Origin: Escherichia coli
GTDB taxonomy: Bacteria > Pseudomonadota > Gammaproteobacteria > Enterobacterales > Enterobacteriaceae
Assembly: GCF_030013595.1 (NCBI RefSeq)
Contig: NZ_CP122768.1
Length of the DNA stretch: 64,000 bases
Direction: 5' to 3' (one strand)
A program made the translations under genes and the position numbers. Positions 38,307 to 39,149 of the stretch are shown piece by piece. Within the stretch, counting starts at the first letter, position 1. Each line of letters starts with the position of its first letter. Below the pieces are notes generated by a model that made no database searches, had not been told where the DNA came from, and saw only the letters and a list, made by a program, of their open reading frames with translations.

Positions 38307-38434
38307 TGCACTATCATTAAATTGACTACGGCATCCAACTCTGGCTACAATCCGAACTGAGGCGTCGAAACCTCTTACAAGCGGTACGCAACCAACCCCG
38401 TCAGTGTTGGATTTTTTATGCCTATTTTTTCAGT

Positions 38435-38453
38435 GGTTGCATCATGTGCAACC
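38435..38453. promoter_or_regulatory. palindromic candidate operator upstream of the antirepressor gene
   Basis: ggttgca-tcatg-tgcaacc perfect inverted repeat about 130 bp upstream of the ant-like start. Confidence 0.3.
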
Positions 38454-38585
38454 ACATCCCCGATCAATGTCGGGAGGGCGACGAATACAACACCCGAAAG
38501 GGGAATAAGTCCGCGGTACTTGTAGCCGTTTCGAACCTCCCGACGCCACTTTGGTTCTTCTTCGAAAAAGATACAAGAGGTCATC

Positions 38586-39149
38586 ATGACAACCCAACTG
38601 ATCCCCGTTTTCAACGGAACTATCTCAAACGAAACCATCCTTCTATGCAACGCTCGCGATCTGCATGCCTTTCTCGAAGTAGGTAAGCGCTTTGCCACTT
38701 GGATCACCGAGCGACTTAGCGAGTATGAATTCGTAGAAAATCAGGACTATGTGATTGCTTCCCAAATTCGGGAAGCAAAAGGCCGGGGAGGCCACAACCG
38801 CAAGGACTACCACCTCACCCTAGATACCGCCAAAGAGCTGGCAATGGTTGAGCGCAACGAAAAAGGCCGCCAGATCCGCCGATACTTCATCGAGTGCGAG
38901 AAGAAGCTGCGCGAAGATACCACCAGCACACAATCCCCTCTGAATGTTGACATCATCATGCGCGTCAGAAACGGCTCAGTTACCCACATTGAGCACCACA
39001 AATCAGGCTCAGTTATCACCACAGAATGGGCAATTCACTTACTACGCAAAAGTGGATGGATTGTCATGCCACGCGATGAACTTCTTAACACGCCACTGGC
39101 CCAACTGATGCCCGAAAGCTTGCCTCAAACCGGAACCTGCGTCCGGTAA
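38586..39149 (+). CDS. phage antirepressor (AntA/KilAC-type)
   Basis: 187-aa ORF; N-terminal region (...DLHAFLEVGKRFATWITERL...FVENQDYV) and central HLTLDTAKELAMVERNEKGRQIRRYFIECEKK resemble antirepressor domains. Confidence 0.65.
   Translation: MTTQLIPVFNGTISNETILLCNARDLHAFLEVGKRFATWITERLSEYEFVENQDYVIASQIREAKGRGGHNRKDYHLTLDTAKELAMVERNEKGRQIRRYFIECEKKLREDTTSTQSPLNVDIIMRVRNGSVTHIEHHKSGSVITTEWAIHLLRKSGWIVMPRDELLNTPLAQLMPESLPQTGTCVR

Follow-up and report, generated by a model that had tools for sequence, protein, structure and literature searches.

We analysed a stretch of 64,000 nucleotides (nt) of Escherichia coli DNA (assembly GCF_030013595.1, contig NZ_CP122768.1), called the window below, for the control of ant, a gene for an antirepressor-like protein in the tail module of a prophage. 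The locus is likely to be an RNA-gated antirepressor cassette of the type known as immI in phage P1, with an antisense RNA from the sRNA-Xcc1 family instead of the C4 family. The predicted elements follow each other in the order promoter, a1b1 hairpin RNA, weak terminator, spacer hairpin, 84-nt small RNA (sRNA), a2 and b2 sites at the Shine-Dalgarno sequence and ant (Table 1). Two segments of the predicted sRNA, b' and a', are complementary to b1 and a1 upstream as well as to b2 and a2 downstream, and the three partners covary across loci.

An sRNA-Xcc1 family RNA upstream of ant

The Infernal match to the sRNA-Xcc1 model has 78.0 bits (gathering score 53, E-value 8e-14) and covers model positions 1-87 of 87. 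It is the one strong match in an Rfam scan of positions 36500-40000, and it was recovered when the whole window was scanned at the gathering threshold. An earlier note on this DNA had missed this antisense RNA, which lies between the palindrome described there and the ribosome-binding site. In its predicted fold the RNA is like P1 C4, with an outer stem, two hairpins, a hairpin-2 loop that corresponds to b', a single-stranded 3' junction that corresponds to a' and a CC tail (...GCCACC in P1). Of 99 distinct sRNA-Xcc1 copies, 90 have a CC[N] tail after the outer stem, where the background is 25%. The RNA family itself is different, as hairpin 1 of the window RNA carries the sRNA-Xcc1 signature AAUACAA...ACCCGNAAGGGGAAU.

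The hairpin-2 loop and junction, CUUGUAGCCGUUUCGAA (38519-35), are complementary to UUCGAAAAAGAUACAAG (38561-77) over 17 nt (82%), reaching into the Shine-Dalgarno sequence. The same segment is also complementary to positions 38365-81, which hold a1 and b1, with a predicted duplex energy of -18.3 kcal/mol. Thus two segments of the RNA match two sites at the ribosome-binding site and a second copy of these sites, a1/b1, is found upstream. The antisense RNA lies upstream of its target on the same strand and behind one promoter, with all elements on the plus strand.

Table 1. Predicted elements of the ant cassette and neighbouring genes, in window positions
Feature	Position	Strand	Description
Sigma-70 promoter of the ant leader	38322-38351	+	TTGACT, 18-nt spacer, TACAAT; 10/12 in consensus scan
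a1b1 decoy leader RNA	~38358-38417	+	Putative short hairpin RNA with two decoy sites and a weak terminator
GAGG/CCUC hairpin	38359-38374	+	a1 UCGAAA (38365-38370) in loop
b1	38376-38381	+	UACAAG, followed by conserved CGG
Weak terminator	38392-38417	+	CCAAC-cccgtcagt-GTTGG-a-TTTTTT; stem 38392-96/38406-10, loop CCCGUCAGU, U-run 38412-17
Spacer hairpin (palindrome)	38433-38455	+	GTGGTTGCA-tcatg-TGCAACCAC, as RNA GTGGTTGCA-ucaug-UGCAACCAC; perfect 9-bp arms
sRNA-Xcc1 RNA (Rfam: RF02221)	38469-38552	+	84 nt, between the palindrome and the ant ribosome-binding site
sRNA outer stem	38469-77 with 38536-44	+	9 bp, tRNA-like
sRNA hairpin 1	within 38469-38552	+	Conserved AAUACAAC-ACCCGAAAGGGG-AAU
sRNA hairpin 2	38513-29	+	Loop b' CUUGUA (38519-24)
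sRNA 3' junction a'	38529-35	+	UUUCGAA
sRNA 3' tail	38545-48	+	GCCA; G-CCA after the outer stem
a2	38561-67	+	UUCGAAA, target site in the ant 5' untranslated region
b2	38572-77	+	UACAAG, overlaps the Shine-Dalgarno sequence GAGG (38577-80)
ant	38586-39149	+	Open reading frame of a 187-amino-acid AntA-domain protein; GAGG Shine-Dalgarno sequence 5 nt upstream of ATG
Moron 1	37275-37823	+	182 amino acids, signal-peptide-like N-terminus
Moron 2	37845-38306	+	153 amino acids, signal-peptide-like N-terminus
Baseplate J-like gene	36027-37265	-	Pfam Baseplate_J; left insertion flank
Baseplate-module gene	39125-39472	-	PHROG 7986; right insertion flank

Covariation of the three partners

With the conserved core of the sRNA we found 120 loci on viral contigs, with 112 distinct copies. 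The covariation set consists of the 75 distinct loci that have a start codon supported by a Shine-Dalgarno sequence, and perfect complements of at least 6 nt were counted. Within the 45 nt before the start codon, the loop has such a complement in 89% of cognate and 12% of non-cognate combinations, and the site ends at a median of 9 nt before the start codon (interquartile range 8-10). The junction reaches 60% cognate and 9% non-cognate in the same 45 nt, with sites ending about 19 nt before the start. For the upstream region, the values are 92% cognate and 22% non-cognate for the loop, and 76% and 17% for the junction. Computed on the segment of hairpin 2 plus junction only, cognate duplexes are more stable than non-cognate ones by about 4-5 kcal/mol; adding the outer-stem strand inflates the values.

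One natural example of compensatory change is the Shiga toxin (Stx) phage P13771 (L002), which has two tandem cassettes (3608-3697 and 4147-4232) with loop and junction sequences that differ between them. The sites on either side of the RNA have changed to match in each cassette, so the changes are compensatory in all three partners. The first ant of P13771 is cut to 94 amino acids, which is the AntA domain only, exactly at the start of the -35 element of the second cassette, and this end marks the left edge of the mobile unit.

The covariation also bears on a different reading of the RNA, namely that it is a host-directed trans regulator, as proposed for Xanthomonas and Xylella, and that its adjacency to ant is incidental. 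In the literature sRNA-Xcc1 is trans-acting, tied to virulence regulators and has many predicted host and plant targets. Such a role would not account for covariation among three partners whose flanking sites keep fixed positions, nor for the consistent placement of the RNA about 40-50 nt upstream of Ant, Bro, KilA-N and Rha genes, and we regard it as extremely unlikely.

Promoter and a1b1 leader RNA

The promoter of the leader is conserved. The enteric clade contributes 41 distinct leaders. Each has a -10-like hexamer, usually 8-11 nt ahead of the first hairpin (range 4-11), and in 37 of them a TTGACN -35 element is found 16-18 nt from this hexamer, despite unrelated spacer sequences. Transcription would start at about 38356-38359, and everything past ~38357 is expected to be leader RNA. 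We found no C1-type operator at the promoter. No LexA-box-like or second-promoter signal was seen by eye in the stretch from the terminator to the sRNA, and a promoter scan gave none there either. The promoters of one enteric subclade (L125-L195) have a conserved GATC, a Dam site, in the spacer between -35 and -10, which the window promoter does not have.

The a1b1 segment has its own conserved features. We counted its hairpins per sequence in 82 distinct upstream segments: a stem of 4-7 bp abutting a U-run is found in all 82 and in all clades, the terminator loop motif CCG..A in 81, and GCGG or ACGG directly after b1 in 72. AUGCC is conserved after the U-run in the upstream segments of L004-L123. 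A MAFFT alignment of 66 a1b1 segments gave no consensus structure in RNAalifold, as stems from different clades were out of register by one column.

The earlier note had assigned the weak terminator to the two genes upstream of ant, the morons. The hairpin with its T-run does exist. Its place is downstream of the ant promoter, and homologous leaders without upstream morons, for example in Stx phages, have it too; it therefore belongs to the ant leader.

We considered but did not adopt an antiterminator in which the GCGG after b1 pairs with the 5' strand of the terminator. It fits many clades, yet the GCGG is also kept where the terminator stem is UCAC/GUGA. A GCGG-N4-CCGC-loop-GCGG-U7 arrangement in many clades could make alternative antiterminator and terminator hairpins. 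Two further complementarities were observed: the promoter spacer (38333-38343) is an inverted repeat of the terminator 3' half (38402-38412), also in the Stx version, and the terminator 3' half GUGUUGGAUU (38404-38413) is complementary to the stretch AAUACAACAC (38484-38493) of the sRNA, which is conserved in the family.

The palindrome as a probable hairpin of the leader RNA

A perfect inverted repeat before ant had been reported in the earlier note, which took it for an operator. The repeat is perfect, with arms of 9 bp instead of the 7 bp given there, and stops 13 nt short of the sRNA 5' end. The hairpin to which it corresponds keeps a fixed distance to the sRNA. No other copy occurs in the window. 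A search of the window for perfect hairpins (arms of 9 bp or more, loops of 3-8 nt) gives 18, or about 14 distinct ones after merging nested ones, and about 1.1 are found in shuffled sequences. The palindrome is thus unlikely to be due to chance, yet it is no unique feature.

Comparison of homologous loci shows that the pairing is kept though the sequence changes. In 33 distinct leaders 80.8% of the cells are paired, with compensatory changes in 8 of the 9 pairs; none of 500 shuffles reaches these values, and slid registers drop to 14-53% paired. The perfect 9-bp form, on the other hand, was found in only 6 of 71 related copies, so what homologous loci share is the pairing with its covariation and not the perfect repeat. 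In two relatives (L131 and L147) the site has unrelated sequences and is still paired. With the apical pair excluded, G.U cells outnumber A.C cells by 15 to 4; with this pair, a probable loop position, included, the asymmetry is absent (17 vs 21).

These results speak to the proposal that the palindrome is an operator for a dimeric repressor controlling ant transcription. The perfect 9-bp arms and the conserved GTG...CAC ends in relatives would suit an operator, and symmetric covariation of half-sites could in principle mean co-evolution of operator and repressor. The palindrome neither overlaps nor abuts the conserved promoter, however, but lies about 80 nt downstream of its -10, inside the transcribed leader, and it does not recur at other promoters: its half-sites are not enriched above chance in the window or in the early and immunity region of the related phage Rac-SA53. 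The pairing by unrelated sequences in L131 and L147, the excess of G.U over A.C outside the apical pair, the usual mismatch at stem position 5 and the different hairpins at the same position in other clades all argue against an operator as well. We therefore consider the operator very unlikely. The palindrome is most likely a hairpin of the leader RNA, to judge from its position and covariation, and its role is perhaps in processing or as an insulator between folds.

The Ant protein

Residues 22-91 of Ant match the AntA/AntB domain (Pfam: PF08346) with an E-value of 8e-27 and 94.1 bits (cut-off 27). The whole protein matches PHROG 14211, annotated 'anti-repressor' (5e-74), and the N-terminal domain matches PHROG 63, the family of P1 Ant1 (1e-24). 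A direct BLASTP comparison of Ant with P1 Ant1 is marginal (E-value 0.077). The earlier note had called the protein Ant/KilAC-like and suggested a domain search for AntA, KilAC and Bro-N. The antirepressor-family part of this description holds, as the search found AntA. The KilAC part does not: the Pfam search of Ant gave no match to ANT/KilAC (Pfam: PF03374) at E<=0.01, whereas P1 Ant1 matches it at 1e-30 in the same kind of search, and no Bro-N domain was found in Ant by Pfam either.

Ant has 4,692 homologs, labelled antA/AntB family or 'phage antirepressor Ant', and is an ordinary member of this large antirepressor-annotated family. Residues 1 to ~110 form the conserved N-terminal domain, presumably of a DNA-binding type. 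The last ~70 amino acids form a variable C-terminal domain, for which several unrelated alleles occur among the homologs, with P22_AR_C in its place in some relatives. The protein is compatible with a KilA-N/APSES-like fold class; Iyer and colleagues reportedly linked the KilA-N and APSES domains in 2002. Such a fold does not by itself make Ant an antirepressor. Ant is presumed to antagonise a prophage repressor, and the cross-induction of other prophages raised in the earlier note would be speculative. Within the ant open reading frame, a perfect hairpin with 9-bp arms, TTGCTTCCC-aaattc-GGGAAGCAA (38755-38778), coincides with an indel-rich, low-confidence loop of the AntA domain (residues ~57-70).

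The protein could also play a different part, if the locus were a toxin-antitoxin-like or defence module. The protein would then be a growth-arresting or 'kil' effector and the sRNA its RNA antitoxin, serving addiction or abortive infection and not prophage induction. The same RNA family is found before the toxin gene symE in Xanthomonas integrons (10.1101/2025.06.18.660453), KilA-N, Bro-N and many small unknown proteins lie downstream of the RNA elsewhere, and expression of AnrP and AntQ is toxic (PMC4825925). This explanation shares an identical RNA mechanism and touches the role of the protein only, and the families that include the window protein carry an anti-repressor annotation. We consider such a module improbable here.

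Comparison with known immunity systems

The closest parallel to the cassette is immI of P1 and P7. In P1 (AF234172) the order is promoters, a1, b1, a terminator-like hairpin with a U-run, c4 (77 nt), a2, b2 over the icd Shine-Dalgarno sequence, icd and ant1. The window has the same order of elements at similar spacing: a promoter, an a1/b1 hairpin RNA, a terminator-like hairpin, an antisense RNA of about 80 nt and a2/b2 over a Shine-Dalgarno sequence. In both the downstream protein is annotated as an antirepressor, although P1 Ant1 has the KilAC domain that the window Ant does not have. In contrast to P1, the window promoter has no C1-type operator that we could find and the cassette is placed in the tail module and not in an immunity region. 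c4 blocks translation of ant (PMC12197685), and the C4 precursor is described as an RNase P substrate in a source cited within PMC4919922 (Hartmann et al. 1995).

In the prophage Gifsy-1, the isrK-orf45(STnc1160)-anrP locus likewise makes a short terminated 5' RNA and a read-through form from one promoter (Hershko-Shalev et al. 2016, PMC4825925). It also has a processed stable RNA downstream, and RNA-RNA pairing controls the translation of its antirepressor-like gene (PMC4825925). The Rfam matches in P1 immI are C4, c4-a1b1 and a sub-threshold isrK, which spans a1b1 and the terminator; the window counterpart of this match is 38358-38417. Gifsy-1 differs in that the isrK model misses the window, and its short RNA activates translation via an upstream open reading frame which is absent here.

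The CI RNA of satellite phage P4 is, as far as PMC4825925 describes it, an immunity RNA processed from a leader that pairs with seqA and seqC, upstream and downstream of itself. According to the literature, from which this comparison is taken, it acts by premature transcription termination of replication genes. The downstream sites in the window overlap the Shine-Dalgarno sequence, which points to translational masking, unlike in P4. A small antisense RNA that blocks translation initiation of an antirepressor is also known from P22 immI (sar-ant; PMC12197685). P22 sar is a true cis-antisense RNA, encoded on the opposite strand across the ant ribosome-binding site, whereas the window RNA is encoded upstream on the same strand with short bipartite complementarity.

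Members of the sRNA-Xcc1 family are found next to genes in other elements too. In integrons of Xanthomonas campestris an RNA of the same family by covariance model lies upstream of, and in the same orientation as, the potentially toxic symE, and the authors remark on 'a divergent regulatory mechanism' (10.1101/2025.06.18.660453). In APSE phages sRNA-Xcc1 lies upstream of an ORF6N gene. The Xanthomonas sRNA differs from the window RNA in being described as trans-acting, under the control of HrpG/HrpX and with a suggested virulence role. In the searchable literature we found no paper that ties sRNA-Xcc1 to C4-type immunity RNAs or describes flanking a1b1/a2b2 sites, and the family goes unmentioned in a 2025 review of phage sRNAs. 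A connection between sRNA-Xcc1 and the immunity RNAs of C4 type seems not to have been reported before.

Proposed mechanism and points against it

By analogy with P1/P7 c4, P4 CI and Gifsy-1 IsrK, the weak terminator would be partly read through. Read-through transcripts would be processed and a stable sRNA of about 80 nt freed; the 5' cut of the precursor would probably be made by RNase P, because of the tRNA-like stem and the NCCA tail. The sRNA may then pair with a2/b2 in trans, in cis or both, which would mask the Shine-Dalgarno sequence and block 30S binding. Ant would then not be made in the lysogen, nor from a superinfecting phage that shares the specificity. If the sRNA is titrated, either by the short terminated a1b1 RNA or in cis by the a1b1 segment, ant translation could be unlocked.

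Several points count against a P1-immI-type cassette. The start of transcription, the strength of termination, the processing and any action in trans are predictions. The helices in the window are short, with 6 bp for b'/b2 and 7 bp for a'/a2 (-13 kcal/mol). There is no icd-like coupling open reading frame in the window (none between 38552 and 38586), and the ant ATG directly follows the target sites. The antirepressor activity of AntA-domain proteins like Ant is an annotation. The published view of sRNA-Xcc1 is that of a trans-acting, HrpG/HrpX-controlled Xanthomonas sRNA (PMC2996969 and Chen 2011, as cited by others). The C4 model (Rfam: RF01695, clan CL00128) has no match at E<=1 in 36500-40000, while the same tool finds P1 c4 at 68.8 bits. 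The c4-a1b1 (Rfam: RF03163) and isrK (Rfam: RF01394) models, both of which match P1, have none at E<=1 in this region of the window either, and at the gathering score all three models also miss 12 other sRNA-Xcc1 loci. For this reason the relation to C4 is architectural and not a demonstrated homology.

Another reading is a leader that works in cis only. The sRNA-Xcc1 fold would never be freed, and a'/b' would toggle between a2/b2 (masked) and a1/b1 (open), like structures A and B of isrK-orf45. All complementarities are indeed on one transcript, the IsrK read-through RNA takes alternative structures (PMC4825925), and decoy duplexes are on average stronger than those at the ribosome-binding site. 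However, the tRNA-like outer stem and the CC[N] tail are conserved, in which the RNA resembles C4 and CI, both of them processed. Transcripts of sRNA size have been reported from Xanthomonas and Xylella, and orphan or tandem sRNA-Xcc1 copies without an adjacent open reading frame exist (L027; Xylella arrays, PMC12189769). A cis-only leader seems unlikely to us, and we retain the immI-type cassette with a freed sRNA as the preferred reading.

Among the orphan and tandem copies, L027 has two sRNA-Xcc1 copies, one of them without a downstream open reading frame, and L086 has two copies 243 nt apart. Xylella fastidiosa Temecula1 has five copies at a spacing of ~381 nt (PMC12189769). It is possible that such copies are stand-alone immunity RNAs.

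Prophage context of the cassette

From left to right, the window passes from E. coli chromosome into a Rac-SA53-like prophage at ttcA; the window is ~96% identical to Escherichia phage Rac-SA53, a prophage integrated at ttcA. The repressor region of the prophage, which is of the dicA/dicC type in Rac-SA53, falls outside the window. The earlier note was right in describing an island of two secreted proteins and ant on the opposite strand to the genes of the tail and baseplate module. The three genes on the plus strand sit between baseplate genes on the minus strand. Both flanking baseplate genes have homologs in Pantoea phage PdC23 and Yersinia phage vB_YenM_29.18 that overlap each other directly, which identifies 37266-39124 as an insertion. 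The GC content of the two morons is 35%, compared to ~50% in the surroundings. They match PHROGs 31333 and 26680, both annotated as unknown function, and a Pfam search of both gave no match.

A relative labelled as an Actinobacillus phage, vB_Apl-pPE4 (L003), is 95% identical to the prophage region of the window. At its positions 3640-3670, it has lost moron 2, the RNA leader in full and the initial ~25 codons of ant through deletions. This leaves the AntA-domain open reading frame fused behind moron 1, without the RNA lock.

Downstream of ant, a strong G+C-rich hairpin, AAAGCCCCGACUG-uuugcc-CAGUCGGGGCUUU (39857-39889), lies between a bppV-like gene and two tiny open reading frames on the minus strand (39476-39800) that have no counterpart in PdC23 or the YenM phages. 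This hairpin could terminate the plus-strand ant transcript ~700 nt past ant. Rfam matches to 'sar' (39830-39891, weak) and 'rimP leader' were rejected, since they merely reflect this terminator hairpin.

Elsewhere the window carries chromosomal sRNA genes, and the Rfam models sok, RydC, STnc490 and MicC were matched at gathering level (268-419, 969-1032, 17933-18056 on the minus strand and 28216-28331 on the minus strand). At 20466-24628, close to the lysis module, Rac-SA53 (L203) has genes for a pertussis-like toxin pair (eplBA) and for heat-labile enterotoxin IIa; by coordinate mapping from Rac-SA53, a counterpart in the window would lie at roughly 56.7-60.9 kb.

Distribution and significance

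The block 38322-38912, comprising promoter, leader, sRNA and the AntA N-terminal domain, is found at ~79% identity in more than 100 phage records, mostly of Stx-converting phages. In these phages, among them Stx2a phages, including those of the O104:H4 type (79-81% identity), the cassette lies in the early region. Because it recurs there, the block is a mosaic unit independent of the morons. Among 5,426 complete E. coli genomes, the exact cassette (at least 95% identity) is present in nine and the Stx-phage version in ~146. E. coli O141:H4 P13-6 has a leader that is 100% identical to the one described here.

To describe which proteins are found with the RNA, we ran Pfam on 99 distinct proteins encoded after sRNA-Xcc1 copies in phage contigs. 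Bro-N is the most frequent N-terminal domain with 23 proteins, followed by KilA-N with 14, Rha with eight, AntA and ORF6N with seven each and P22_AR_N with six. Together these antirepressor-type domains account for 65 matches in the 99 proteins, about two-thirds. The C-terminal domain P22_AR_C was found in 15 proteins. About one-third of the downstream proteins are small and have no Pfam match.

The whole sRNA-Xcc1 family, which many proteobacterial genomes carry under the label of a Xanthomonas 'virulence' sRNA, might be the antisense part of a portable three-part RNA switch. Its parts would be an a1b1 decoy with a leaky terminator, the antisense RNA and targets at the ribosome-binding site, and in phages and integrons it would gate genes for antirepressors, KilA-N, Bro and Rha proteins and toxins. 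The highly variable a'/b' loops would then set many immunity specificities, orthogonal to each other. Another element with a matching decoy or sRNA could lock or unlock ant in trans, with RNA-based cross-talk among co-resident prophages, including the Stx phages with two cassettes of different specificity. We put this generalisation forward tentatively, as a possibility that we find slightly harder to accept than to doubt.

For ant itself, control would lie in an RNA lock with a built-in decoy instead of a repressor at the palindrome. This gives a testable mechanism, with targets, for a widely annotated RNA family whose function was guessed from virulence regulation in Xanthomonas. The conserved decoy partner, the a1b1 RNA with its CCCG..AG terminator loop, is a so far unmodelled companion motif. 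The results suggest that P1-style RNA immunity is far wider than the C4 family and would take the form of a mosaic unit of roughly 600 bp placed on many antirepressor-type genes. In Stx2a phages, such control of the antirepressor would bear on spontaneous induction and toxin release.

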